A stretch of 36,398 bases of DNA from a virus (taxonomy: Duplodnaviria > Heunggongvirae > Uroviricota > Caudoviricetes), in the IMG/VR virus record IMGVR_UViG_2869965101_000006; one strand, 5' to 3'. The position numbers and the translations under genes are program-made. The notes beneath the pieces are model-generated. The model was not told the DNA's origin and searched no databases. It saw only the letters and a list, made by a program, of their open reading frames with translations. Within the stretch, counting starts at the first letter, position 1. The number at the start of each line of letters is the position of its first letter. Below are positions 62-36,398 of the stretch, in pieces.

Positions 62-83
62 GAAAAAAGGCCGCAGAGCGGCC
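62..83 (-). terminator. putative rho-independent terminator ending the int-orf120-orf146 unit
   Basis: GC stem ggccgc/gcggcc (69..83) preceded on the plus strand by an A-run (62..68), i.e. a U-tract after the stem on the minus strand; lies downstream of the 209..649 ORF. Confidence 0.45.
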
Positions 84-208
84 ATAAACACAAGTAAAAA
101 TCAACAAGTTAGATAATTATCAAAGACTTACAGACACACAAAAACACAGCCAACCACAACAAATAACAGGGATGTGGTCACTTTGTGGATCATATCGCCG
201 CCATAAAT

Positions 209-649
209 TTACTTAATAACAGTAACCACAGCCACAAGCACGGCCATCGCAGACAGGACAATACCTGTGAGTAACCAAGTCTGATTTGCAAATGATTTCT
301 GAAGTTCAGTACGATGCTCAGCCATCTCAACTTTCAGAGACTGGCGTAAATCAGCCATCTCAGACTTCAGGGATTGGCGCGATTCTGCCATCTCAAGCCT
401 CAACCCTTCGCGAATCTCCAGTACATCAGATTTGGTAGCAAAGGATTCGCTTCTTGTAGTGAGAGTAATCAGGTTGTTTTTGATTTCAGTCACATCACTT
501 TCCAGGCAACTGACCCGCCGTTCAAGGTCGTCATTCATGCCATCACCTCCATCATTACCACTTCCTGTTACTTGGTTGTTGGATACATTATAGGCATTCT
601 CTTTCTTTTTTCTGAACCGCGAAATATGTGCAACATTCTCTGCCATCAC
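209..649 (-). CDS. hypothetical membrane-anchored coiled-coil protein (146 aa)
   Basis: ORF start overlaps the stop of the upstream ORF; polar Gly/Asp-rich N-terminus, three 11-residue repeats (SLKSEMADLRQ-like) and a C-terminal hydrophobic helix (LLTGIVLSAMAVLVAVVTVI). Confidence 0.5.
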   Translation of the reverse strand: MMAENVAHISRFRKKKENAYNVSNNQVTGSGNDGGDGMNDDLERRVSCLESDVTEIKNNLITLTTRSESFATKSDVLEIREGLRLEMAESRQSLKSEMADLRQSLKVEMAEHRTELQKSFANQTWLLTGIVLSAMAVLVAVVTVIK

Positions 650-1008
650 TTCTCATCACCCTGCTTGCCTACCCAGTTCATAAAGGCCCGGGCCGAGTAA
701 CGATGAACAAACCCACATCTGTTACAGGTAAGTCGGAATTCATAGTTATGGATATTTTCCCGATCATGTCCCTCATATCCCGGATACCCAGTAAATGGAC
801 CGATGTAATCAAGCATAACAAAAGTGCCTAAATCACACTCCTCAGCAGTTTTCGGCTCAGGCCCCACCTCAACAATATTCGTCAAATACATGTACATATC
901 CGTATCGCCACACGACAAACATTTTTCATTCGTAGACGACTCATTGAGAAAACGCGCAAAATTATCGAGCGTTGCCATTCTTTTAAGTTCATCTAAATGA
1001 AACTTCAC
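646..1008 (-). CDS. hypothetical protein with two Cys pairs (CLSCG...CNRCG), possible zinc ribbon (120 aa)
   Basis: ORF with GTG start 2 nt after the int stop and stop overlapping the next ORF start; no family recognised. Confidence 0.45.
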   Translation of the reverse strand: MKFHLDELKRMATLDNFARFLNESSTNEKCLSCGDTDMYMYLTNIVEVGPEPKTAEECDLGTFVMLDYIGPFTGYPGYEGHDRENIHNYEFRLTCNRCGFVHRYSARAFMNWVGKQGDEK

Positions 1009-1010
1009 TC

Positions 1011-1988
1011 TTAAGCACCTCCTAGTGGATTAAACCTCACCGCATCCTGCAGGTAATCCGGCGCAAGATGGGCATAAATCATCGTTGTCTGAATCTTTGC
1101 GTGCCCCAGAATTTTCTGGAGCGTCAGAATATTGCCGCCGTTCATCATGAAATGACTGGCGAAGGTGTGGTGCAGCGCATGAACAGCCTGGCCGTCAGGA
1201 ACATCAGGTGCGACCGTTTTGATGACATCGCGAACCAATGAATAATCCAGCGTCGGAAACACCAGTTTCCCGCCCCGTTTTTTGATCTTTTCAAACAGGC
1301 TTTCAGAAATAGGAACGGTACGGTTTTTGCTGTTCTTCGTTTTTGAAAAAGTGATTCGACAATGAAGAACACGGCGCTGCTCCAGTGCCGCTACCTCGCC
1401 CCATCGCGCCCCGGTCGACAGAAGGATTTCGACAGCCAGTCGTTCATCGGGATTTTCAGCCAGTGCATCCAGCAACTGAACACATTCAGACTTACTCAGA
1501 TATCCCATTTCGCGCTCCTTAACCTTCATTCCTTTAAGGCCTTGAACGGGGTTATCGTTAAGAAAATGGCCGGATGAGATGAGTGCGGTAAACATCGCGC
1601 TTAACGCCCCAATCTCTCGATTTATGGTGCTGGGCTGTATCCCCTGCTCTATCCTGGACACACGTAGCTCGGTGAGCATCGTTGTATTAAGTTTATGCAC
1701 GCACGGGTCATCCATTGCTTCACTCAAGCGCAGCAATTTAAGGCGCGTGTTATGCCCTGACTTCATTAGCTGGCCGTGGTATTTCCACCACAAGTCAATA
1801 AGCACTGACAGAGGACGGCGATCAATAGAGTTTCCTTTCCACTCATTGTTATGCTGTTGCGCCAGCACCCACCGCTCATATAAAACTGCATCCGATTTCG
1901 TTTTAAATTTTTTGCGAATGCGTTTGCCTTTACGCCCCTCAGGGCACATGTCAAGAAGATACCCTCCCAGAATTGATTTTATGCTCAT
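1011..1988 (-). CDS. int: P2-type tyrosine integrase
   Basis: Start taken at internal Met (MSIKSILGG...) so as not to overlap the repressor; recalled similarity to P2 Int along the whole length, including the C-terminal HALHHTFAS...GHAKIQTTMIYAHL catalytic region. Confidence 0.9.
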   Translation of the reverse strand: MSIKSILGGYLLDMCPEGRKGKRIRKKFKTKSDAVLYERWVLAQQHNNEWKGNSIDRRPLSVLIDLWWKYHGQLMKSGHNTRLKLLRLSEAMDDPCVHKLNTTMLTELRVSRIEQGIQPSTINREIGALSAMFTALISSGHFLNDNPVQGLKGMKVKEREMGYLSKSECVQLLDALAENPDERLAVEILLSTGARWGEVAALEQRRVLHCRITFSKTKNSKNRTVPISESLFEKIKKRGGKLVFPTLDYSLVRDVIKTVAPDVPDGQAVHALHHTFASHFMMNGGNILTLQKILGHAKIQTTMIYAHLAPDYLQDAVRFNPLGGA

Positions 1989-2037
1989 TCGTGAAACCCC
2001 AGCGTTACAAGACCACCATGCCCCCAGCGTTCTATGA

Positions 2038-2346
2038 TTAGCCGGGCTGTGTACCAGTCTTGCGGGATTTTTGAGAAGACGATGTGTTTTCTGGCCCATC
2101 AGGGGAGAGAGAGGGACTGATCTGCCCAGCAGCCTCATTTGTTTTTCCCGTCATAAGCCAATTCATGTACTTAAAAAAGCGAGGGTGATTAACAATCTTG
2201 ATAAGCACTTCGCCCCCTATGTTTTCAATCCGCCCCGTTTCATAACGACGCAAAGTGCCGATAGGCACATCAATCAGGCCGCAAAATTCTTCGCGCGTTA
2301 AATCCTCTGATTCACGAATCACTCTAATTTTTTCACCGATAAGCAT
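2038..2346 (-). CDS. C: P2 C-type immunity repressor
   Basis: About 100 aa, divergent from cox; HTH-like N-terminus and a C-terminus (SSSQKSRKTG) resembling P2 C; start chosen at internal Met. Confidence 0.7.
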   Translation of the reverse strand: MLIGEKIRVIRESEDLTREEFCGLIDVPIGTLRRYETGRIENIGGEVLIKIVNHPRFFKYMNWLMTGKTNEAAGQISPSLSPDGPENTSSSQKSRKTGTQPG

Positions 2347-2442
2347 TGACAGTGTCCCTATAAGTACACTAAGCTTGCGCACAAGGTGTACTTATAAGCA
2401 CACCAAGTCACAAACAACCACAGATAGCGCAGGTTATCACAC
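2347..2442. promoter_or_regulatory. immunity switch region (divergent early/repressor promoters with operator repeats)
   Basis: Intergenic between divergent C and cox; direct repeats ctataagtacac (2358..2369) and cttataagcacac (2391..2403); TTGACA at 2346..2351. Confidence 0.5.
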
Positions 2443-2721
2443 ATGGCAAAAGTCCTGAACACACACGAACAGGCAGACTTTGAGCGTTTAGCAGCGTTCT
2501 ATCCCTACCGCGATGAGCATGGGTTACCAGTACTTGAAGAAAGCCTGAAAGATTACGCAAAGCGTACCAACCAAGCTGTTAACACAGTGAAAAGACAGGC
2601 TGACAGAGGTTCAATTCCCATCAACCAAGATGAAAAGAACTCAAGACGCACAGTAAATCTCTTCGCTCTTTTCCTGAAAACAATCAGGAGCGCAGAAAAA
2701 TACGTGCAGATGACAAAATAA
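2443..2721 (+). CDS. cox: Cox-like small early protein (92 aa)
   Basis: Position immediately rightward of the C/Pe switch and size match P2 cox; sequence identity not verified. Confidence 0.55.
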   Translation: MAKVLNTHEQADFERLAAFYPYRDEHGLPVLEESLKDYAKRTNQAVNTVKRQADRGSIPINQDEKNSRRTVNLFALFLKTIRSAEKYVQMTK

Positions 2722-2735
2722 CGAGGTGTCATTTT

Positions 2736-3074
2736 ATGCTGAAGCAACGCCGTAATTTTCGTACCGGAACAGAACGCCACGCTAACCGTTTCACTACCAG
2801 TGCATCACGCAGCAACATCCGCTACAGCCTGAGTGATACACACGCAACGCAGGATGGCTACCCAGTAAAACAAATCGGCGAGCACACCTGGCTGATTGAG
2901 AAAGCTGGAATCGTGATCCACAAATGCCCACGCAATCCGTTTACCGGAAACCGCATTTTTGCATTGAGCTGTGGCGACAATCAGTTCGGGCAGGATTTCA
3001 CATTATACGAAGCACTTCGCACGATTGATCGTCTGCTTCGCGGGCAAAGTTTTATTAAACAGACTGATTTATAA
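2736..3074 (+). CDS. hypothetical early-region protein (112 aa)
   Basis: ORF with upstream GAGG-like RBS, in the early operon. Confidence 0.45.
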   Translation: MLKQRRNFRTGTERHANRFTTSASRSNIRYSLSDTHATQDGYPVKQIGEHTWLIEKAGIVIHKCPRNPFTGNRIFALSCGDNQFGQDFTLYEALRTIDRLLRGQSFIKQTDL

Positions 3075-3084
3075 CAGGTGCTTT

Positions 3085-3372
3085 ATGACCAAAGACCATG
3101 CACAAGGTGTATTTATCCGTTTTATTGATTTTCGCGGTGAACTGTTATTACGTGCATCCGCTATTGACGGAGTGACTCCGGCGGGTAAAAACGGAGCCGA
3201 CGAAGCCACTTACGTTTATCTGAACGGCACGCGACTGCTTGTGGAACTTCCGTACCAGACCGTACGAGAAATCATTAGCGAAGCTGAAAAGGCACGCCAG
3301 GTTAATGGCGATGAACCCTATATCGAAATTATTTGTATGGATTCAGAAGCTGAAATACAGAAAGCAGATTAA
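3085..3372 (+). CDS. hypothetical early-region protein (95 aa)
   Basis: ATG at 3085 inside a longer six-frame ORF; co-directional with the early operon. Confidence 0.45.
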   Translation: MTKDHAQGVFIRFIDFRGELLLRASAIDGVTPAGKNGADEATYVYLNGTRLLVELPYQTVREIISEAEKARQVNGDEPYIEIICMDSEAEIQKAD

Positions 3373-3383
3373 AGGGCGTTGTG

Positions 3384-3620
3384 ATGGGCAAAGAATATAA
3401 AACTCTCATTAACAAAGCACTTGAGCGTTTTTATTTTCGCTTAAGTGCATCAGGCGCTCATGCTGAACGTGCGGCCCGTGACTCATTGACCAGAGCAATC
3501 CGAAGTCTGTATGACGTGGCTTTTTACGCTGATGATCTGGATGCACTTAACGAACTTTCCGAGCTGATCTGTGCCGCAGTGGATTTGCCCCTATATTTCC
3601 AGACATCTGTTATCACTTAA
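3384..3620 (+). pseudogene. early-region ORF truncated by IS2; C-terminus now encoded by IS2 end sequence
   Basis: ORF runs into the IS2 terminal sequence at 3580; its last residues ([11 protein letters not shown]) are identical to the IS2-derived tail that also replaces the ogr C-terminus. Confidence 0.5.
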
Positions 3621-3844
3621 CCCATTACAAGCCCGCTGCCGCAGATATTCCCGTGGCGAGCGATAACCCAGCGCACTATGCGGATGCCATTCGTTATAAT
3701 GCTCGAACGCCTCTGCAAGGTTCTTTGCTGCCGTTAACCCGTCTGGTTTGGGCATGATACTGATGTAGTCACGCTTTATCGTTTTCACGAAGCTCTCTGC
3801 TATTCCGTTACTCTCCGGACTCCGCACCGCCGTGTTCTTCGGTT
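3580..3844 (-). mobile_element. IS2 remnant (one terminus plus 3' end of insD), about 265 bp
   Basis: 3580..3844 is identical to 33056..33320 of the full IS2 copy; the element is cut off by IS911 at 3845. Confidence 0.8.
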
Positions 3845-3916
3845 TGAAGTGGCACACTGAATTTGGCCACCTGAACAGAGGTGATATGCTCACCTCAGAA
3901 CAACACAGGTGCTCCA

Positions 3917-4338
<422 letters not shown>

Positions 4339-4609
4339 TTACGCAGTCAGGTACTTGAGCTACATGGCATCAGCCATGGTTCGGCCGGAGCAAGAAGCAT
4401 CGCCACAATGGCAACCCGGAGAGGCTACCAGATGGGACGCTGGCTTGCTGGCAGGCTCATGAAAGAGCTGGGGCTGGTCAGCTGTCAGCAGCCGACTCAC
4501 CGGTATAAACGTGGTGGTCATGAACATGTTGCTATCCCTAACTACCTTGAAAGGCTGAACCGCCCCGGGAATCCTGGAGACTAAACTCCCTGAGAAAGAG
4601 GTAAACAGG

Positions 4610-4932
4610 ATGACTAAAAATACTCGTTTTTCCCCCGAAGTCCGTCAGAGGGCGATTCGTATGGTTCTGGAAAGTCAGGGCGAATATGACTCACAGTGGG
4701 CGGCAATTTGTTCCATTGCCCCAAAGATTGGCTGTACACCGGAGACTCTGCGTGTCTGGGTACGCCAGCATGAGCGGGATACCGGAGGCGGTGATGGCGG
4801 GCTCACCACCGCTGAACGTCAGCGTCTGAAAGAGCTGGAACGTGAAAATCGTGAACTGCGCCGCAGTAACGATATCCTTCGCCAGGCTTCCGCTTATTTT
4901 GCGAAGGCGGAGTTCGACCGCCTCTGGAAAAA

Positions 4933-4936
<4 letters not shown>
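4610..4936 (+). CDS. IS629 OrfA
   Basis: 108-aa [24 protein letters not shown]..., IS3-family OrfA. Confidence 0.9.
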
Positions 4937-6395
<1,459 letters not shown>

Positions 6396-6406
6396 TGACC
6401 ACTTCA

Positions 6407-7012
6407 AACCGCAAAAAAGCGAACGTCATGCGCCCGGTGGAGTACCAGAACGGCGAAGCATTCACTATCCGTAACGTACGGGTTATGCCTGAATCCATTC
6501 CGGCTGGCTTTAAGGCACTGGCTGACATGAGTCCGTTTGAATCCCTGCTGATTGTGGATTTGGGCGGAACCACGCTGGATGTGGCAAAGGTTCAGGGGCA
6601 ACTGGCAGGTATCAGCCAGGTGTTTTGCGATCCACACGTGGGCGTTTCTCTGATGGCCGATGCCGTACTGTCGGTGATGGCCACTAACGGTATGCGCACC
6701 AGTCACCACATCGCCAATACCATTATCGAACATCGCCATGATGAAGCCTGGCTGCGCCAGCACATCCACAATGACGCGCATTACGCCAGCCTGATGGCGG
6801 TAATTCGTGAAAAGGAAGAAACACTGAAACAACGCGTGATCCGCGCGCTGGCGGGTTTTTCGGGTTACGGGCGGGTGATGGTTGTCGGTGGAGGGGCGGA
6901 GATTGTGGCACCCGCTATCCGCGAAGCCTGCGGAGTTAATGCGACTTTCATCGCGGACGGGGTGCCACAGTTTGCTCTGGTTAATGGGCTGTACGCAATG
7001 GACAAGGAGTAA
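6407..7012 (+). pseudogene. parM/stbA-like actin-type segregation ATPase, 5'-truncated by the IS911 boundary
   Basis: Reading frame begins exactly at the IS911 end; translation (…TFTIRNVRVMPESIPAGF…LLIVDLGGTTLDV…) matches the C-terminal ~200 aa of plasmid R1 ParM as recalled. Confidence 0.7.
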
Positions 7013-18009: not shown

Positions 18010-18777
18010 GGTGATGCTGCCAACTTACTGATTTAGTGTATGATGGTGTTTTTGAGGTGCTCCAGTGGCTTCTGTTTCTATCAGCTGTCCCTCCTGTTCA
18101 GCTACTGACGGGGTGGTGCGTAACGGCAAAAGCACTGCCGGACATCAGCGCTATCTCTGCTCTCACTGCCGTAAAACATGGCAACTGCAGTTCACTTACA
18201 CCGCTTCTCAACCCGGTACGCACCAGAAAATTATTGATATGGCCATGAATGGCGTTGGATGCCGGGCAACTGCACGCATTATGGGCGTTAGCCTCAACAC
18301 GATTTTACGTCACTTAAAAAACTCAGGCCGCAGTCGGTAACCTCGCGCATACAGCCGGGCAGTGACGTCATCGTCTGCGCGGAAATGGACGAACAGTGGG
18401 GATACGTCGGGGCTAAATCGCGCCAGCGCTGGCTGTTTTACGCGTATGACAGGCTCCGGAAGACGGTTGTTGCGCACGTATTCGGTGAACGCACTATGGC
18501 GACGCTGGGGCGTCTTATGAGCTTGCTGTCACCCTTTGACGTGGTGATATGGATGACGGATGGCTGGCCACTGTATGAATCCCGCCTGAAGGGAAAGCTG
18601 CACGTAATCAGCAAGCGATATACGCAGCGAATTGAGCGGCATAACCTGAATCTGAGGCAGCACCTGGCACGGCTGGGACGGAAGTCGCTGTCGTTCTCAA
18701 AATCGGTGGAGCTGCATGACAAAGTCATCGGGCATTATCTGAACATAAAACACTATCAATAAGTTGGAGTCATTACC
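18010..18777 (+). mobile_element. IS1, 768 bp, with 9-bp target duplication GGGTTGAAT
   Basis: Ends GGTGATGCTGCCAACTTACTGAT… and …ATCAATAAGTTGGAGTCATTACC; insA 18065..18340 and insB frame 18385..18762; duplication at 18001..18009 and 18778..18786. Confidence 0.9.
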
Positions 18778-19066
18778 GGGTTGAATTAGGTTGGTCAGAT
18801 TTCTATACCACGACACGAAAACCTTCAGCGGGAGATGTTGGTGCATATACGCGGGCAGAATGTAACTCAAGGTTTATTACAGGTATTCGCCTTGGCGGTC
18901 TGTCATCTGTTCAGACATGGAATGGTCCCGGCTGGTCTGACAGGTCAGGTTATGTCGTTACGGGTTCAGTTAACGGAAACCGTGATGAATTAATTGATAC
19001 AACACAGGCAAGGCCAATTCAGTATTGCATTAATGGGACGTGGTATAACGCGGGGAGTATTTAACG

Positions 19067-25620: not shown

Positions 25621-26905
25621 GCCAAGCCCAAGCGCGGAACGGATGCGATCGGGCACAATGTCCTTGCCGTCCTTCGGTGATGCTGCCAACTTACTGATTT
25701 AGTGTATGATGGTGTTTTTGAGGTGCTCCAGTGGCTTCTGTTTCTATCAGCTGTCCCTCCTGTTCAGCTACTGACGGGGTGGTGCGTAACGGCAAAAGCA
25801 CTGCCGGACATCAGCGCTATCTCTGCTCTCACTGCCGTAAAACATGGCAACTGCAGTTCACTTACACCGCTTCTCAACCCGGTACGCACCAGAAAATTAT
25901 TGATATGGCCATGAATGGCGTTGGATGCCGGGCAACTGCACGCATTATGGGCGTTAGCCTCAACACGATTTTACGTCACTTAAAAAACTCAGGCCGCAGT
26001 CGGTAACCTCGCGCATACAGCCGGGCAGTGACGTCATCGTCTGCGCGGAAATGGACGAACAGTGGGGATACGTCGGGGCTAAATCGCGCCAGCGCTGGCT
26101 GTTTTACGCGTATGACAGGCTCCGGAAGACGGTTGTTGCGCACGTATTCGGTGAACGCACTATGGCGACGCTGGGGCGTCTTATGAGCTTGCTGTCACCC
26201 TTTGACGTGGTGATATGGATGACGGATGGCTGGCCACTGTATGAATCCCGCCTGAAGGGAAAGCTGCACGTAATCAGCAAGCGATATACGCAGCGAATTG
26301 AGCGGCATAACCTGAATCTGAGGCAGCACCTGGCACGGCTGGGACGGAAGTCGCTGTCGTTCTCAAAATCGGTGGAGCTGCATGACAAAGTCATCGGGCA
26401 TTATCTGAACATAAAACACTATCAATAAGTTGGAGTCATTACCCCGTCCTTCCGGTAAATGAAGTTCAGCAGGTCAATCTCCCACAACGGGCGATCGTTA
26501 ACACTCAGCTTGTAGTAGGTGTTTTAATGGCGTAAGTGTGTGATGTGGCTTCGCCCTGTTTGGCTTCCCCCATATCAATTTCCGTCACACGTCCGCGCAT
26601 TTCGACTTCATACAGGTCGCTTTCTGCATCGGTGTAGTATTCACCCGCAAAACGCAGCAGCGTGCCGTCAATCGTGCCGCCATACTTAAGGAACAGCTCA
26701 CGAACTGCGCCCCCATGACAAAGCTCGCATCAAGCGCGGAGTCGTCCAGACCGAGATCAATACTTACCGCACCCATCATGCCACCACCCCGGTAGCTGTC
26801 GGTTTTGCGCGTCAGCTTAGGCAGAGTGACGGACGTCACATTACCCACTTCGTTTTCACCATCCACAAACAGCGTAAAAAAGCGAAGATGTTTTGGCACA
26901 GCCAT
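25621..26905 (-). pseudogene. tail tube (P2 FII-like) destroyed by IS1 and frameshifts
   Basis: N-terminus (…SVTLPKLTRK…DLGLDD…) matches FII; homology then changes frame at least twice (around 26500 and 26700) and is split by IS1. Confidence 0.75.
25676..26443 (+). mobile_element. IS1, second copy, 768 bp, with 9-bp target duplication CCGTCCTTC
   Basis: Identical to the copy at 18010..18777, same orientation; duplication at 25667..25675 and 26444..26452. Confidence 0.9.
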
Positions 26906-28246: not shown

Positions 28247-29356
28247 ATGACCGACACCACCATGCAATTGCTCAGTCAGGGCACGGCCCCCGTGAAAATG
28301 CCGGATTTTGATATTCTCTCGGAGGGTAAAACGCTGTCAGGCGTGGCGGAGCGCCTGATGAGCCTGTAACTGACCGACAACCGGGGATTTGAGGCGGACC
28401 AGCTCACCATCACGCTGGATGATGCGGATGGTCAGTTGCAGCTACCGCCACGGGGCGCGCGTCTGACGGTTCTCATTGGCTGGAAAGGGGAACCGCTGAC
28501 AGAAAAAGGCACTTACATTGTTGATGAAATCGCTCACGAAGGACCGCCGGACAGGCTGACTGTTTCAGCCAGAAGCGCAGATTTTCGGGATGAATTTAAC
28601 GTTAAACGTGAGGTGTCCTGGCATGATGTGACCGTTGAGCGTGTGGTATCCGCCATCGCTCATCGATACGGTCTGAAACCGCAAATCAGCGAAATGCTGA
28701 TGGATATCGAAATCGACCACGCCGACCAGACCGAAGAAAGCGACATGTCCTTTCTTACGCGCATGGCGGAAATGCTGGGAGCAATCGCCACGGTAAAAAG
28801 CGGCAATCTGTTATTCATCATGCCAGGTGGTGGCGTGAACGCACAGGGGCAGCCGTTGCCCTCGTTCGCCATTACACGCAGCAGCGGCGATCGCCATCAG
28901 TTCCGCATTGCTGACCGCGAGGCGTATACGGGGGTACGCGCCTACTGGCTTGATCTTAATTACGGGAAAAAGAAAAAAGTCAGCGTGAAACGCCGCAAAC
29001 CGCCAAAACCCAAAAAGGAGAAAAGCAGCAGTCGGGAAGGCGACTATATGGAAGGTGCGGAAGGCAACGTGTTTGTGTTACGCAAGACTTATCAGAACGA
29101 GCAGGCAGCAAGACGCGCAGCGGCGGCAAAGTGGCAGCAGCTACAACGCGGAGCCGCATCATTCTCCATCACGCTGGCGCGTGGTCGTGCAGAACTCTAT
29201 CCCGAAATGCATGGCACAGTGACAGGCTTTAAAAGCGAGATTGATTATCAGGACTGGATTATTGCAAAAGCCGAGCACACCATTGATAACAGCGGCTTTA
29301 CCACGCAGCTTGAACTTGAAGCAAAAATCCCGGAATGGATAGCAGAAACAGAATAA
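28247..29356 (+). pseudogene. tail protein D (P2 D-like) with in-frame TAA
   Basis: ATG at 28247 after a GGGAGGGAG RBS; in-frame TAA at 28367..28369 inside the conserved …LTDNRGFEADQL… motif; the rest (28436..29356) is open. Confidence 0.75.
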
Positions 29357-29604: not shown

Positions 29605-32600
29605 ATGATTGGACAATTTTTAAGTGCAACAGAGATTTTAGCAAAGAACTATGTTCGTAATAAAATGGTTAAAAATCCATTTTATTCGAATTTAAAATGG
29701 AATTTTATTGAAAAAAACATCATAAGATTAACATCCTCACCGGTTAAATCAGTACTTTGCATATCAGCTTTTTCATTTGTACTACTTTATGTTGGATATT
29801 TAAACGAATTATTTATAAAAAATAATCTTTTACATTATTTCCCGTTTAGGCATTCATTAACCGAATGGCAAACAACCATTTTAAGTGGCCAATTGACAAT
29901 TATTGGTATTGTATACCCCCTTGTTATAGGTTTAGTAAGTATCTTATTCCAAAAAAAGGCAGATAGAAAAATAGCCCAAACTGCTTATCAGCGTTACTCA
30001 GGATTCATGCTTGCTGGACTCAGCGGGCTTTTCTTATCAGGATTTATACTTCTCAGTGTACTAATTAAAACTGTCTTTGGAAGTTATCTTTATGGTATAG
30101 CTTGTCTAATCAGCATATTATGGCTTTTGATAAACATAGTTCTTTCTATTTGGTTCTTTATCGTGAGTCTTGAAATTCTTGATGATGTAAAACGGCAAAT
30201 AATTATAAAGCGATACATTGCCTTCGAAATAGTAATGCCCCATATTTGTAACAAAATCTCAGCCAAGCTTAGGTTATACCCTATCTATCAAAAACATAAC
30301 TATTCAAATTTAGAAATCAAGCAAGCCGATTACAAAGGAGAATACATATCTGTGGCTAGCAGTTATTCTAAGGAAGATGAGTTAAGTTTATATCACCGTC
30401 CTTTTCAACTTACTCTTAATCTTATTAATTACCAACTAAAAAAGAAGAATCATTTTGCGTCATTTGTCATTGGTGATAATCGTACAAAAGAAACAGAATC
30501 CACGGGTAAGATACTTTTTAGCGTTAAAAATATCAAACCAGACAGCTTATTAATAAAAATACTTAAGCAATGTTTTTATAGGGCTCCGATTAAAGGAGGA
30601 GATTTTTCCGTAAGTCTTACAATGCAGGCTATAACAGCAGATACGTATATGTATCTGCGGGATTCTGATCTCATTAGTTTTGACAATGCTATCTCTGCAT
30701 TAATTAATAACTTTAATAATCTCTGCGATTTGTATTTTTTTCAAGATGATAATACCAACAATAACTTCTTACTGATCACTACAGAATTATTTGAACGGAG
30801 TTTTCAATATGAGTTTTCAGATGAAGTTTATAAAATATCAAATAATTCCATGGATAAAATTAATCTTTCTGAAAGATTTTTTGAATTATGTCTTTGGAGC
30901 GGAGTGCGTATTATCAATAATAGAAAACATCTTATCAGCAATGAACTTTGTATCTATATGGGAATTACTCGTTCACAATGGTCAATATTAACAGAATGGT
31001 TCCGAAACAACCAATCACTCTTAAATGCCTCGCTTCGTTCACGTTATAATCGTATATTAAGAACCTATACCACTGTTTGGGAGCAATATCAAGAAAGCAT
31101 AAACTTTCGTTTCTGCAATACAGAGAATTCAGATTTATTTGAATTATTTTGCAAAACGCAACTACAAGAACTTCCATCGATGATTATTGATGCAACACAG
31201 ACTCGCGATCCTTCTACTATTGATACAGCCGTCGATCTTATTAACCGATGGCAGCACTCAATGAATATTGACAGCCATTCGGTAGAAAAATACAGTTACA
31301 AAGGCCAGCTTTTTAACCCGGGTTTTTTCATATCCAAAAAACTAAACTTCAATTCAGACAGAGAGTGGTTCAATATTGCCATCATAAATGCGTTGACTGA
31401 CATGCGTATATGCACATGTCTTTATCTGACATCAAGAATCAATACTTCTGACAAACTAATGACACATTACATTAAACTTATTTTAGAGGGTAAACTTATT
31501 GACCAAACCGGTGGATATGAAACTCCCACTGAAGAAATTGATAATGCAAGCCAACTAATCAAGATATTAATTAGAATCTGCCTGTGGACATGGTCTGAAA
31601 ATATGGAACACAATGGGTGGATGAATAGTTTAGCAAGGCGTTTACGTGACTATGATAAAACAGACATGGTGATGGGCAGAGTTTACAGTAATGTTTTTGA
31701 CTGTGGATTTATTGATATGGAACAATCATGGGTTCAGCTATTATTAATTTTTTCTAACAAGAACGATAGCGTATCAAAAGAAATAAAAGAAGCAATAGAA
31801 AACAACTATATAACATATCGTGAGAAGCAACGACTCATTGGAGTATTATCAAAAATTTGTAACTCCATCGAATACACTAAAATCAAGCTGACTTTAACAT
31901 TGGACGATCTCCAAACAAAAAAAGAAAACTTAAGAAAGTTGCTTCAAGAGCATATTAACATGCTAAAGAAAGATCTTGATATGAGACTTCAGGATGCTGC
32001 CATAGATGTACATCGACTAGATAGCACTGCACGTAAAACATCAGAACATCTTCGTAAACGCATCAAGAAAACGCTCCCTCTTTCACTTTTTAAATCTATT
32101 GATTTTAAGCAGGCTAGCGATTGTTTCACAAAACATAAGATATCTATTAAGATAGATAAAGAACCGTATGCCGAAGGAATAGAATCCATCCCTTATATCA
32201 ATGAAGGTGATATTCAAGCAGACTTAATTCTCAAGGACATCCAGAGAATAATACTTTCAAATTTATTTAGCACTGGCTGTTCGCAACATACCGTAATAGA
32301 AGATTTCAATATGTTGATTGATCACATAAAATCATCTGCTGACTTGGCTGGCAAACTGGTTCTTGTGATGAGTAAAGAGATCTTTCAGCAATATAATCGT
32401 ATGCTTTTCGATAATCCCAACCTCAGAGAACTAATGAGAAAAAATGATGATGGCTCTATGAACATAACTACTGAATCCGGTACCCGTAAGGTTTACTTCT
32501 TACCATTTGTTAATCAACCATTTTCTCTTGTGGTAAAGGATAACTACTTCACTAAATTAATTATTAGAGAATATGATAATAATAAGTTAGTAAATGTCAC

Positions 32601-32724
32601 TTCAGAGAATATCAAAAGTGACTCAGATAAATTCAAGCTAACTCTTAACTATGAGTTGAATGTAGTATTTGAAGGAAACGCTGATTTAAAAATAGCTCAC
32701 TCGCAAAGAGTGACATCAGAATAA
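29605..32724 (+). CDS. large hypothetical membrane-anchored protein (1039 aa), AT-rich cargo gene
   Basis: Uninterrupted ORF; four hydrophobic helices in the first ~190 aa then ~850 aa of Asn/Lys/Ile-rich soluble sequence; no Walker A, HxH or other obvious catalytic motif by eye. Confidence 0.75.
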   Translation: MIGQFLSATEILAKNYVRNKMVKNPFYSNLKWNFIEKNIIRLTSSPVKSVLCISAFSFVLLYVGYLNELFIKNNLLHYFPFRHSLTEWQTTILSGQLTIIGIVYPLVIGLVSILFQKKADRKIAQTAYQRYSGFMLAGLSGLFLSGFILLSVLIKTVFGSYLYGIACLISILWLLINIVLSIWFFIVSLEILDDVKRQIIIKRYIAFEIVMPHICNKISAKLRLYPIYQKHNYSNLEIKQADYKGEYISVASSYSKEDELSLYHRPFQLTLNLINYQLKKKNHFASFVIGDNRTKETESTGKILFSVKNIKPDSLLIKILKQCFYRAPIKGGDFSVSLTMQAITADTYMYLRDSDLISFDNAISALINNFNNLCDLYFFQDDNTNNNFLLITTELFERSFQYEFSDEVYKISNNSMDKINLSERFFELCLWSGVRIINNRKHLISNELCIYMGITRSQWSILTEWFRNNQSLLNASLRSRYNRILRTYTTVWEQYQESINFRFCNTENSDLFELFCKTQLQELPSMIIDATQTRDPSTIDTAVDLINRWQHSMNIDSHSVEKYSYKGQLFNPGFFISKKLNFNSDREWFNIAIINALTDMRICTCLYLTSRINTSDKLMTHYIKLILEGKLIDQTGGYETPTEEIDNASQLIKILIRICLWTWSENMEHNGWMNSLARRLRDYDKTDMVMGRVYSNVFDCGFIDMEQSWVQLLLIFSNKNDSVSKEIKEAIENNYITYREKQRLIGVLSKICNSIEYTKIKLTLTLDDLQTKKENLRKLLQEHINMLKKDLDMRLQDAAIDVHRLDSTARKTSEHLRKRIKKTLPLSLFKSIDFKQASDCFTKHKISIKIDKEPYAEGIESIPYINEGDIQADLILKDIQRIILSNLFSTGCSQHTVIEDFNMLIDHIKSSADLAGKLVLVMSKEIFQQYNRMLFDNPNLRELMRKNDDGSMNITTESGTRKVYFLPFVNQPFSLVVKDNYFTKLIIREYDNNKLVNVTSENIKSDSDKFKLTLNYELNVVFEGNADLKIAHSQRVTSE

Positions 32725-32859: not shown

Positions 32860-33096
32860 ATGTTCCGTTGTCCGCTTTGTGGCGCATCTGCCCGTATCCG
32901 CACCAGTCGTCCGGAAAATGATTCAAACACCGTGAGACAAAAGTATTATCAGTGTAACAATCTAGAATGCGGCGTATGTTTCTCAACACTGGAAGCCTTC
33001 CACAAATTCACTTCAAAGCACGCCTCCCCCATTCACTCATCAGAGGGCATCCCGTTGGATTTGCCCCTATATTTCCAGACATCTGTTATCACTTAA
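32860..33096 (+). pseudogene. ogr: late-gene activator ogr, 3' end replaced by the IS2 insertion
   Basis: MFRCPLCGASARIRTSR…YYQCNNLECGVCFS zinc-finger N-terminus like P2 Ogr; from codon 66 the frame is IS2 sequence; original 3' end at 34388..34452. Confidence 0.8.
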
Positions 33097-33972
33097 CCCA
33101 TTACAAGCCCGCTGCCGCAGATATTCCCGTGGCGAGCGATAACCCAGCGCACTATGCGGATGCCATTCGTTATAATGCTCGAACGCCTCTGCAAGGTTCT
33201 TTGCTGCCGTTAACCCGTCTGGTTTGGGCATGATACTGATGTAGTCACGCTTTATCGTTTTCACGAAGCTCTCTGCTATTCCGTTACTCTCCGGACTCCG
33301 CACCGCCGTGTTCTTCGGTTCAAGTCCCAACATCCGGGCGAACTGGCGTGTTTCATTAGCCCGGTAGCATGAACCATTATCCGTCAGCCACTCCACTGGA
33401 GACGACGGAAGATCGTTGCCGAAGCGGCGTTCCACCGCTCCCAGCATGACGTCCTGTACTGTTTCACTGTTGAAGCCGCCGGTAGTCACCGCCCAGTGCA
33501 GTGCCTCACGATCACAGCAGTCCAGCGCGAACGTGACACGCAGTCTCTCTCCGTTATCACAGCAGAACTCGAACCCGTCAGAGCACCATCGCTGATTGCT
33601 TTCTTTCACGGCCACTCTGCCTGTATGTGCCCGTTTCGATGGCGGTACAGCAGGTTTTCGCTCAAGCAACAGGGCATTCTGGCGCATGATCCGGTAAACA
33701 CGTTTGGCATTGATCGCAGGCATACCATCAAGTTCTGCCTGTCTGCGAAGCAGCGCCCATACCCGACGATAACCATACGTGGGCAGCTCTCCGATAACAT
33801 GGTGTATACGGAGAAGCACATCCGTATCATCAGTGTGACGACTGCGGCGGCCATCCATCCAGTCATCGGTTCGTCTGAGAATGACGTGCAACTGCGCACG
33901 CGACACCCGGAGACAACGGCTGACTAAGCTTACTCCCCATCCCCGGGCAATAAGGGCGCGTGCGCTATCCAC
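33067..33972 (-). CDS. insD: IS2 InsD (OrfB, DDE transposase)
   Basis: 301-aa ORF; its 3' end is the sequence duplicated in the remnant at 3580..3844. Confidence 0.85.
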
Positions 33973-34336
33973 TTTTTTGCCCGTCCATATTCAACGGCTT
34001 CTTTGAGGAGTTCATTTTCCATCGTTTTCTTGCCGAGCAGGCGCTGGAGTTCTTTAATCTGCTTCATGGCGGCAGCAAGTTCAGAGGCAGGAACAACCTG
34101 TTCTCCGGCGGCCACAGCAGTAAGACTTCCTTCCTGGTATTGCTTACGCCAGAGAAATAACTGGCTGCTACACCATGTTGCCGGGCAACGAGGGAGACCG
34201 TCATCCCCGGTTCAAAGCTCTGCTGAACAATTGCGATCTTTTCCTGTGTGGTACGCCGTCTGCGTTTCTCCGGCCCTAAGACATCAATCATCTGTACTCC
34301 AATGACTAGTCTAAAAACTAGTATTAAGACTATCAC
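33930..34336 (-). pseudogene. insC: IS2 insC (orfA) with internal frameshift
   Basis: orfA is split into two overlapping ORFs (34064..34336 and 33930..34115) in different frames. Confidence 0.6.
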
Positions 34337-34642
34337 TTATTTAAGTGATACTGGTTGTCTGGAGATTCAGGGGGCCAGTCTACCCGTGGCATGAACTGCC
34401 AACTTCACACAGAGGAAACAATCAGATGAGTTTGCCCTTACCTCAGAATTAACGAGCAGAATTGCCGGAGTAACAAAAAAGCGATAGATTACGCGCGGGT
34501 GCCTTTCGGCTGATGGTCGGAGGGAATACCTGAAGGCCAGATGTGGAAAGGCCCCGGAAAACATTTTTGTTTAACCGAGGCCCTAACCGTCTACCCTAAG
34601 CAAGTGATAGGTTAGCGCCTCCCCGAAAAAGGAGCAAGCGCT

Positions 34643-34783
34643 ATGTCGCAAAAATCGCTTACGGCCATCACGTTCTGCGTGACGGCAATCCTCATCATCT
34701 GGATGCTGCACGGTTCGCTGTGCGAAATACGGATGAGCTTCTGGGGAGCGGAGTTTGCGGCGTTCTTACAGTGTAAGCAGTAA
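34643..34783 (+). CDS. Hok/Gef-family type I toxin (46 aa)
   Basis: AAAAAGGAG RBS; small hydrophobic peptide with the family signature …SLCEIR…EFAAFLQCK. Confidence 0.6.
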   Translation: MSQKSLTAITFCVTAILIIWMLHGSLCEIRMSFWGAEFAAFLQCKQ

Positions 34784-34905: not shown

Positions 34906-35201
34906 GTGTCCTCACCGACTTGAAACAGTGATCAGACTATAAGACAAAGCCCACAATGTAGCGGGCTTACTCCCGTTACTTTATTCGTACCCCTTATAAT
35001 GGGGTGTTAGCCAGCCAGACCCGGCATGATTACTGCCCCCAGTCGTCCATGATCCGGGGGGTGATGTCACCGGGTCTGGTGGGGCGCTGGTAACCGCTAA
35101 TAGGGGTCAGGTCAGGCATTTTTGCCGGGACCGTCTGTAACGTGGATGCCGGTACCTGCTCCCCGTGGTTATCTGGTTAACCCATATACAAGGGAGACAG
35201 A
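34906..35201 (+). ncRNA. candidate left-end non-coding region of an IS110-family element (possible bridge/guide RNA)
   Basis: About 300 bp without an ORF immediately upstream of an IS110-family recombinase gene; boundaries not determined. Confidence 0.3.
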
Positions 35202-36398
35202 ATGACCGAATCCAGCGATTACGAATCCGTCCAGGTCTTTATCGGCGTTGATGTCGGTAAAGATACGCATCACGCTGTTGCCATTAATCGTTCAGGTAAA
35301 CGCCTGTTCGATAAAGCATTACCCAACGACGAAAACAAACTCAGGTCGCTAATATCTGACCTGAAACAACATGGTCAGATACTGCTGGTTGTTGATCAGC
35401 CAGCTACCATCGGTGCGTTACCTGTCGCCGTTGCCCGCTCAGAAGGAGTCCTTGTCGGATACCTCCCTGGACTGGCCATGCGCCGCATAGCCGACTTACA
35501 CGCCGGTGAAGCTAAAACTGATGCTCGTGACGCTGCCATCATTGCCGAAGCTGCCCGTACCCTGCCTCACGCGCTACGCACGCTGAAACTGGCTGACGAG
35601 CAAATCGCCGAACTCTCCATGCTCTGCGGCTTCGATGATGATCTTGCCGCACAGACAACGCAGGCCAGCAACCGTATCCGCGGCCTTCTGACCCAGATAC
35701 ATCCGGCACTGGAGCGCGTTCTCGGTCCGAGACTTGAGCACCCGGCGGTACTCGATCTTCTCCAGCGATATCCCTCACCAGAAAAACTCGCTTCGCTGGG
35801 TGAGAAGAAGCTGGCAGCCCAGCTCTGCAAACTTGCGCCTCGTCTGGGTAAACGCCTTGCAGCAGACATAGCTCAGGCACTGGCCGAACAAACCGTCGTC
35901 GTTCCCGGCACGAATGCCGCTGCCGTAGTACTGCCACGTCTGGCACTCCAGCTCATCACGCTGCGTAAGCAAAGAGACGAGGTGGCGCTTGAGGTAGAAC
36001 AGCGAGTTCTTGCTCACCCTCTTTACCCGGTCCTGACCAGTATGCCCGGAGTCGGTGTCAGGACCGCAGCCAGACTCCTCACCGAGGTCGCCTGCCGCGC
36101 CTTCGCCTCTGCCGCACATCTCGCTGCTTATGCTGGCCTTGCGCCGGTAACTCGGCGATCCGGCTCGTCAATACGCGGTGAGCATCCCTCGCGACGGGGT
36201 AATAAAGCTCTCAAACGGGCGTTGTTCCTGTCGGCCTTCGCCGCGCTCAGGGATCCGCTCTCCAGGGCTTACTACACCCGCAAAATGAGTCAGGGAAAAC
36301 GACACAATCAGGCGCTTATCGCCCTGGCGAGACGACGCTGCGACGTTCTGTTCGCCATGATGCGCGACGGGACTTTTTATACCCCGCAGGGGTCATAA
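35202..36398 (+). CDS. IS110-family (DEDD) transposase/recombinase
   Basis: 398-aa ORF; N-terminal FIGVDVGKDTHH RuvC-like motif and C-terminal …SMPGVGVRTAARLL… region; GGAGACAG RBS; stop coincides with the window end. Confidence 0.8.
   Translation: MTESSDYESVQVFIGVDVGKDTHHAVAINRSGKRLFDKALPNDENKLRSLISDLKQHGQILLVVDQPATIGALPVAVARSEGVLVGYLPGLAMRRIADLHAGEAKTDARDAAIIAEAARTLPHALRTLKLADEQIAELSMLCGFDDDLAAQTTQASNRIRGLLTQIHPALERVLGPRLEHPAVLDLLQRYPSPEKLASLGEKKLAAQLCKLAPRLGKRLAADIAQALAEQTVVVPGTNAAAVVLPRLALQLITLRKQRDEVALEVEQRVLAHPLYPVLTSMPGVGVRTAARLLTEVACRAFASAAHLAAYAGLAPVTRRSGSSIRGEHPSRRGNKALKRALFLSAFAALRDPLSRAYYTRKMSQGKRHNQALIALARRRCDVLFAMMRDGTFYTPQGS

Follow-up and report, generated by a model that had tools for sequence, protein, structure and literature searches.

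The window analysed here, a stretch of 36,398 nucleotides from the virus record IMGVR_UViG_2869965101_000006, carries an insertion sequence that is lodged in a phage regulatory gene and is missing four bases from one of its own reading frames. Was the element already broken on arrival, having been moved by a transposase from elsewhere, or did it arrive intact and become broken in place, and if so by what route? What does the interruption do to the phage gene, and is that gene really the late activator ogr of phage P2? The account set out below can be held with good confidence as a whole: an intact IS2 entered an ogr-like gene, the deletion came later, most likely by gene conversion, and the resident copy is now defective.

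The earlier note on this DNA had named the element as IS2, and had given it a length of 1327 bp against 1331 bp for IS2, a 4-bp deletion in insC, an orfA split into two frames at about 34157..34167, and a perfect 5-bp CCCGT duplication. All of this agrees with comparison to a reference copy, IS2A of Escherichia coli K-12 MG1655 (NC_000913, 381260..382590), which is annotated as 1331 bp long. Pairwise alignment over 1331 columns gives 99.25% identity, with six substitutions and one 4-bp gap as the only differences. The gap lies at IS2A positions 216-219, inside the tandem CAGCCAGCCAG; the window reads CAGCCAG there, within the range proposed for the frame split, and the exact place of the loss within the CAGC repeat is ambiguous. 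The 1327 bp run from the IRR end, TGGATTTGCC, at 33056 to the IRL end, ...GGCCAGTCTA, at 34382, and CCCGT is present on both flanks, with a single CCCGT in the uninterrupted allele (Table 1).

Table 1. The IS2 insertion and the gene that it interrupts, with positions numbered along the window.
Feature	Position	Strand	Basis or remark
Truncated Ogr/Delta-like gene, 78-aa product	32860..33096	+	65 native and 13 IS2-encoded codons
CCCGT, left copy of target-site duplication	33051..33055		Sequence; one CCCGT in empty site, E. coli VG38-53E1
IS2, 1327 bp, with 4-bp internal deletion	33056..34382	-	Alignment to IS2A
Right inverted repeat (IRR), 41 bp	33056..33096	-	No differences from K-12 IS2A; length from PMC3299598
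orfB (insD), intact 301-aa frame	33067..33972	-	ORF list; Pfam HTH_21, rve, rve_3
C-terminal remainder of orfA, leucine-zipper-like region, other frame	33930..34115	-	61-aa ORF from GTG
A6G programmed -1 frameshift site (AAAAAAG), intact	33972..33978	-	Role described in PMC3219604
Broken orfA (insC), 75-aa product	34064..34291	-	44 native and 31 out-of-frame residues, then stop
Residual CAGCCAG (+ strand CTGGCTG)	34161..34167	-	One CAGC unit of CAGCCAGCCAG gone
Left inverted repeat (IRL), 42 bp	34341..34382	-	One substitution, A32G; length from PMC3299598
CCCGT, right copy of target-site duplication	34383..34387		Sequence; perfect match to left copy
Displaced 3' end of ogr-like gene	34387..34452	+	Codons 66-86 (34387..34449) and stop; compared with intact allele in E. 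coli VG38-53E1

In most of its anatomy the window copy resembles K-12 IS2A: it has the imperfect terminal repeats of 41 and 42 bp, the orfA/orfB overlap at A6G, the catalytic core and the 5-bp duplication. It differs in lacking one CAGC unit in orfA, with the frame shifted after codon 44, and in its six substitutions, five of which mark the IS2 lineage of Shigella and EIEC (G32, T87, G274, C606 and G900 relative to IS2A); the sixth is G714C. The change at position 32, within IRL, is common to all Shigella-lineage IS2 copies examined. The orfB product contains the integrase-type DDE catalytic core (Pfam rve at 67.8 bits, together with rve_3 and HTH_21) and is identical to the common InsD, that exact protein occurring in 23,327 blocks of the public collection. 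IS2 is characterised by two frames, orfA and orfB, joined by a -1 frameshift; in the window orfA is itself frameshifted, while orfB and the A6G site are intact. Because this two-frame architecture is recognisable though broken, the element is a defective member of IS2 and not a representative of another family.

How much does the loss of one repeat unit cost the element? The OrfAB transposase of IS2 is produced by -1 frameshifting at A6G (PMC3219604), and OrfA is a repressor at the left-end promoter (PMC3219604, PMC3299598). The domain that binds DNA extends over residues 13-58, of which 43-58 form the recognition helix (helix 3), and binding or transposition is impaired by each of the single substitutions S44N, R50H, S57G and L58I (PMC3219604). 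In the window, orfA begins with the ATG at 34291 and keeps 44 native residues (MIDVL...HGVAAS) before running out of frame to a stop at 34064; Pfam HTH_Tnp_1 matches only residues 8-44 of the product. The shift after S44 falls inside the DNA-binding domain, where the recognition helix begins, and takes away DNA binding together with the zipper-like region and the connection to orfB, so that neither OrfA nor OrfAB should be made by the normal route from this copy, much as had been supposed from the first reading, which held that the element probably cannot make its own transposase.

That reading had also made the element dependent on other IS2 copies, which is plausible. Movement in trans by OrfAB from intact copies would be possible, since the element has kept both ends and the annotation of the plasmid of Shigella boydii NCTC 9850, the probable source strain (see below), includes intact IS2 copies; intact ends together with the predicted lack of a functional transposase of its own are the marks of a non-autonomous insertion sequence. 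A more speculative possibility is that translation restarts at a GTG codon, position 34115, that follows AGGAAGGAAG, giving the zipper and catalytic regions without the DNA-binding domain. If so, the product could poison transposase multimers.

The earlier note had the element sitting in ogr and replacing the last ~20 codons of the late activator. The insertion does truncate the gene, but the target is an Ogr/Delta-family homologue and not P2 ogr itself. Its intact form is an 86-aa protein in E. coli VG38-53E1 (WP_000488109.1), and IS2 lies after codon 65, so that 21 codons (66-86) are displaced and 13 IS-encoded codons are gained. Residues 3-49 match Ogr_Delta (PF04606) at 52.3 bits against a cut-off of 26.3, and the four cysteines C4, C7, C32 and C37 are invariant (alignment A1). 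The gene also has the location expected of Ogr/Delta activators: it follows the tail genes of a P2-like prophage, at the right end and adjoining the attachment site. With these features it resembles P2 Ogr; it differs in a C-terminal extension, the P2 protein having 72 residues, and in being only ~38% identical to it, as against 89-97% identical to homologues of P88-like/Xuanwuvirus phages. By these comparisons the target is the ogr equivalent of a P2-like phage and not P2 ogr, and by homology the protein may activate late promoters via the RNA polymerase alpha subunit.

What was lost from this protein matters for how the insertion is scored. The 72-aa P2 Ogr ends at about the position of the cut (alignment A1), and the homologue after insertion keeps the zinc-finger domain and all of the sequence that can be aligned to P2 Ogr. 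Since the 21 lost residues are an extension absent from P2 Ogr, it would be unsafe to assume that activator function is lost, and the same alignment suggests that the truncated activator may still work. C-terminal truncation of P2 Ogr is reportedly the subject of work by Gebhardt et al. (J Bacteriol, 1993). Public databases list the 78-aa product under the name of a Shigella ogr/Delta-like zinc finger protein, and the present case is a caution against scoring such a truncated Ogr as inactivated where the part lost is a non-conserved tail.

Whatever the state of Ogr, the prophage cannot be a working phage. It is a P88/P2-like element between btuC and ihfA, ending in a hok/sok module; the ogr-like gene lies downstream of a D-like gene and a cargo ORF, and is followed by hok/sok and ihfA, a layout that matches an intact relative in E. 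coli VG38-53E1. Relative to that prophage, ~4.4 kb of the early region has gone to an IS cluster, and most of the replication gene with it. Other insertion sequences include two IS1 copies in the tail region and ISEc20 after hok, and these, together with the loss of most of the replication gene, mean that the prophage is crippled in any case. The ATG-start, 78-aa product of an early-gene::IS2 fusion is on record, and the GTG-start, 79-aa version is not. The 1039-aa cargo ORF has no match in Pfam, NCBIfam or PADLOC. An apparent inversion of a block of tail genes relative to P2 was dropped from consideration, the same layout being found in the intact relative and in related phages.

The order of insertion and deletion can be approached through other genomes with the same junction. 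Window positions 384..6620 are 100% identical to CP026762.1, a record reached through the 78-aa early-gene::IS2 product. The accession next to it, CP026763.1, belongs to a plasmid from S. boydii NCTC 9850; by this adjacency NCTC 9850 is most likely the source of the window. (Adjacent accession numbers are the basis of the strain assignments of CP026762.1 (NCTC 9850) and of CP026814.1, L014 (83-578).) The ogr::IS2 junction of the window is absent from the complete E. coli genomes searched, so the window does not come from that collection. The exact patterns of that junction and of the deletion junction had no match in the contig collection, probably because one species representative stands there for E. 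coli and Shigella together. The Ogr::IS2 fusion product of 78 aa nonetheless has exact matches in 171 blocks of the public collection, and eight complete genomes with the identical junction were retrieved, among them CP000036.1 (S. boydii Sb227) and CP026811.1 (S. flexneri serotype 6 strain 64-5500).

The orthologous copies (Sb227, 64-5500 and six others) share with the window the left junction, the orientation and the fusion product, and all eight have G32, T87, G274, C606 and G900. They differ from it in that none carries the 4-bp deletion and none carries G714C. Five are 1331 bp long, two are 1330 bp, and the Sb227 copy is 1319 bp, with a 12-bp loss upstream of orfA; the right-hand repeat is one C shorter in four of the eight. 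The closest by its flank (L014) shows 3 mismatches and the 4-bp gap against the window over 8.1 kb. Because eight orthologous copies at the same junction are without the deletion, the IS2 that entered ogr was intact. Comparison of these genomes thus shows the insertion to be old and shared, with the deletion placed as a later change in the window's lineage, and trans-mobilisation is not needed to explain the entry into ogr of an element that was intact when inserted.

The opposite order, in which a non-autonomous and already deleted element was mobilised in trans into ogr and the intact copies in other strains were later repaired by conversion, is highly improbable. It would fit the intact ends of the window copy, and also the occurrence at many sites of deleted copies with perfect 5-bp duplications of their own (seven of the nine full deleted copies examined), as copies would have if they had transposed in the deleted state or had been converted after insertion; on the plasmid pBS512_211, duplications flank two of the four deleted copies, one of them with an extra base. 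It runs up against the undeleted state of all eight other genomes with the identical junction, Sb227, 64-5500 and the closest relative by flank included. Parsimony puts the intact state at the origin, and repair of the other strains would need conversion anyway, and more of it.

A second IS2 insertion in the same kind of gene should not be confused with this one. In E. coli STEC384 and STEC379, the 3' end of an ogr homologue with 93% identity is interrupted by an IS2 that has the orientation of the window's copy and supplies the IS-encoded tail also seen in the window's Ogr::IS2 product; the gene occupies the same place in the chromosome, next to hok and ihfA. It differs in being an independent insertion 9 bp further downstream, with the duplication TGAAC; the IS2 itself is full-length (1331 bp) and belongs to another sub-lineage, and the prophage differs in its cargo (hxsABCD).

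Arrival of an intact element at ogr leaves the origin of the deletion to be explained, and here other copies of IS2 are informative. Across the public assemblies compared, the deletion is a recurrent allele of many Shigella IS2 copies and not a private lesion of the window. The exact 75-aa frameshift product occurs in 163 blocks and on 119 contigs, and is named from S. flexneri 2457T and other Shigella. Other 1327-bp copies with the same 4-bp deletion and the same 75-aa product are found in pBS512_211, a plasmid of S. boydii 83-578, the chromosomes CP026871.1 and PTES01000002.1, and S. flexneri ATCC 29903; they differ from the window copy in lying at other loci, most with their own 5-bp duplications. 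At least six are in the single chromosome CP026871.1. The deleted copies fall into two sequence backgrounds, one with A42, A43 and A697 as in the window and one with T42, T43 and C697, and are mosaic at position 87. In pBS512_211, the virulence plasmid of S. boydii CDC 3083-94, all four full IS2 copies are deleted and none is intact. A literature search found no description of the 1327-bp, 4-bp-deleted form of IS2.

The breadth of this distribution bears on whether the deletion at ogr is real. IS2 is a multicopy repeat of 1.3 kb, so it is conceivable that in polishing the allele of another copy was assigned to the wrong place; the probable source is a long-read assembly, from a series with 1-bp indels in this same element (the two 1330-bp copies, L015 and L017). 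Such an artefact of assembly or polishing is nevertheless very unlikely. The allele itself is real, being present in assemblies from several independent projects and depositors (pBS512_211 and the annotated orfA of S. flexneri 2457T among them), the loss of 4 bp outside a homopolymer would be an unusual long-read error, and elsewhere 6.2 kb of the window match the public record without a difference.

If the deletion at ogr is real and later than the insertion, is it acquired from another copy or made on the spot? Many deleted copies elsewhere have duplications of their own, yet S. boydii strains differ in the presence of the deletion at three orthologous sites: ogr, a pINV site next to phoN2, and another pINV site next to ospI. 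At the pINV site by phoN2 and IS1, 83-578 and CDC 3083-94 have the deletion and five other strains, NCTC 9850 among them, do not; at that by ospI, CDC 3083-94 has it and NCTC 9850 does not. Two strains show reciprocal states: in 83-578 the ogr copy is undeleted and the plasmid copy deleted, and in NCTC 9850 the ogr copy is deleted and the plasmid copy undeleted. Polymorphism at these three sites indicates that IS2 copies can become deleted after insertion.

The only other difference between the window copy and its orthologues, G714C, has a distribution of its own. In the whole plasmid collection it is found at 5 places in 3 plasmids, three of the five on the NCTC 9850 plasmid, and it also varies at an orthologous site. 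Both the deletion and G714C are alleles borne by other S. boydii IS2 copies. Among the copies found, none combines the deletion, C714 and the other bases of the window; the sole copy with the deletion and C714, in pBS512_211, differs at positions 744, 874, 948 and 1331. The NCTC 9850 plasmid yielded no deleted IS2 copy, so that a donor would have to be chromosomal.

Gene conversion is the preferred explanation and the most likely one, because an old, fixed copy with a strain-specific internal allele is a copy that has exchanged sequence with others. The main competitor is local loss of the four bases through slipped replication of the CAGC tandem, from CAGCCAGCCAG to CAGCCAG, independently of other copies and with G714C as a separate event. 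The change is exactly what slippage would produce, the removal of one unit of a short tandem repeat, and it has recurred in E. coli in IS2 elements of clearly different sequence: one of 97.4% identity in EC17CM13, copies on plasmids, and a relic of ~89% identity present in SMS-3-5 and in many other genomes. Its presence on such different backgrounds argues for independent origin at a low rate in that species. A local slip also stays live because no perfect donor has been found and the NCTC 9850 plasmid is without a deleted copy.

The rate is where slippage fits poorly. A 41-mer able to seed only on the deleted form finds it at 12 places in 11 of 5,426 complete E. coli genomes, in which ~12,856 places hold that segment of IS2, or ~0.1% deleted. 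(Bands of 80-bp identity were rejected as a count of deleted copies, gapped and ungapped matches sharing a band.) A uniform rate of slippage would not yield both this figure and the several loci per replicon and three polymorphic sites of S. boydii; moreover, G714C, a rare allele of the same strain's other IS2 copies, points to exchange between copies at the ogr locus itself. Slippage alone is accordingly a possible but unlikely source of the deletion at ogr. A mixed history, with a de novo slip on a copy separately converted to C714, is possible.

The history proposed here would then run as follows. A full-length IS2 of the Shigella/EIEC lineage would have entered the 3' end of the ogr homologue by ordinary copy-out/paste-in transposition, in an ancestor of the group comprising S. 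boydii and S. flexneri serotype 6, creating the CCCGT duplication. Later, in the lineage of the window (most likely NCTC 9850), the resident copy would have gained the loss of a CAGC unit and G714C, probably when gene conversion, by homologous recombination between IS2 copies, overwrote its interior and spared the ends and the duplication. The resulting copy would produce neither the OrfA regulator nor OrfAB, and might still be moved by OrfAB from intact copies.

A broader idea, which is rather unlikely, is that the 1327-bp form is a self-propagating defective allele of IS2 in S. boydii and its relatives, spreading by both gene conversion and trans-mobilisation. On some replicons, such as pBS512_211 with its four deleted copies out of four, it would have taken the place of the active form. 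If this were so, it would amount to a progressive silencing of IS2 after its expansion.

Taken singly the finding is an ordinary one and carries little weight. IS2 belongs to the best-studied insertion sequences; frameshifted IS copies are familiar, as is exchange between IS copies. Both broken products, the 75-aa OrfA and the 78-aa Ogr fusion, are already in public protein databases, and the expansion of insertion sequences together with prophage decay is a known state of Shigella genomes (PMC7373316). What the locus offers is a clean, datable case of an IS copy that is fixed at one site while its interior changes state between close strains. It indicates that sequence is exchanged among the IS2 copies of S. 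boydii and that transposition is not required for a disabling allele to reach another locus, which is relevant wherever IS activity or the order of insertions is inferred from the sequences of individual copies.

The second IS2 piece in the window, in the early region, truncates an early phage gene to give a 78-aa DUF4754 fusion whose C-terminal tail (12 residues) is the same as that of the Ogr::IS2 product. This fusion protein is found in 107 blocks on record, and the early-gene IS2 insertion is therefore another old event common to relatives. At 3845 the piece is truncated by an IS911-like element, whose left end lies there and opens a cluster of insertion sequences (3845..6406). The cluster stands in place of about 4.4 kb of early prophage sequence, and most of the gene for the replication endonuclease has been lost with it. 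Within this cluster, the IS911-like orfA and orfB piece are separated by a complete IS3-family element, with orfA and orfB sizes typical of IS629/IS1203, a putative name.

Insertion sequences and neighboring features in the window
Feature	Position	Description
Partial IS2	3580..3844	terminal 265 bp including the IRR end; 100% identical to IS2A (K-12 reference) 1067-1331
IS911-like orfA	3881..4219	in IS cluster
IS911-like orfB, partial	4246..4584	in IS cluster
Complete IS3-family element	4610..5823	108-aa orfA, 296-aa orfB
IS1 copy 1	about 18010..18780	tail-fibre region; insA 91 aa, insB' 125 aa
IS1 copy 2	about 25679..26443	between tail genes; insA 91 aa, insB' 125 aa
gpD-like tail gene	28436..29356	Pfam Phage_GPD, profile positions 64-304 of 305
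1039-aa low-GC ORF	29605..32724	between D-like tail gene fragment and ogr
sok-like RNA	34497..34656	RF01794, 46 bits (gathering score 59), E = 1.7e-8
hok/gef toxin gene	34643..34783	Pfam HOK_GEF; prophage right end
ISEc20 (IS110 family)	34975..36398	between hok and ihfA; continues past window end

The second IS1 copy is missing from the E. coli VG38-53E1 relative, and this ISEc20 is absent from all eight of the other complete genomes examined that share the ogr::IS2 junction. The window's ISEc20 junction is also matched in one genome, that of E. coli strain 300709, a hint that this element may favour a particular target. The sok-like match next to hok scores below the gathering threshold of its family; of 5,426 E. 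coli genomes, about 1,180 have the ogr-hok block as a whole without interruption.

The gpD-like gene appears to be shortened at its N-terminus. It and the sheath-tube-tape-measure block lie on opposite strands, and its transcription runs away from that block. The E. coli relative has the same arrangement, so this layout may be normal for the phage group rather than a rearrangement. The 1039-aa ORF, with many predicted hydrophobic segments in its N-terminal part, has no match in Pfam, NCBIfam or PADLOC, and the “MFS transporter” label attached to it in the E. coli relative looks doubtful; in two Shigella genomes (comparison loci L010 and L013) it is broken by IS1. Because other prophages carry different genes at this position (hxsABCD in STEC384, a YecA-family gene in CFIAFB20180511), the site may serve as a slot for variable cargo, which could include defence genes.

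The missing CAGC unit of the ogr IS2 has a parallel in a degraded IS2-like relic widespread in E. coli chromosomes (SMS-3-5, L007, 4880323..4881098, and many others): about 89% identical to IS2 and carrying an internal deletion, it is also 4 bp shorter in this repeat (80-bp ungapped match, 3 mismatches). Among the eight orthologous ogr::IS2 loci, four have a right-hand duplication shorter by one C (CCGT), and the copy in S. boydii Sb227 (CP000036.1; L012, 6197..7515) measures 1319 bp, with several private substitutions and 12 bp missing between the left repeat and orfA (IS2 positions 59-70). A separate full-length IS2 lies in an ogr homologue, 93% identical to that of the window, in E. coli STEC384 (L004, 3249..4579) and STEC379. 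It is in the same orientation, with a different duplication (TGAAC), at the equivalent of window 33064/33065, 9 bp downstream of the window insertion. Two independent IS2 insertions within 9 bp suggest either that this part of ogr is a local IS2 hot spot, or that insertions sparing the first 65-68 codons are tolerated.
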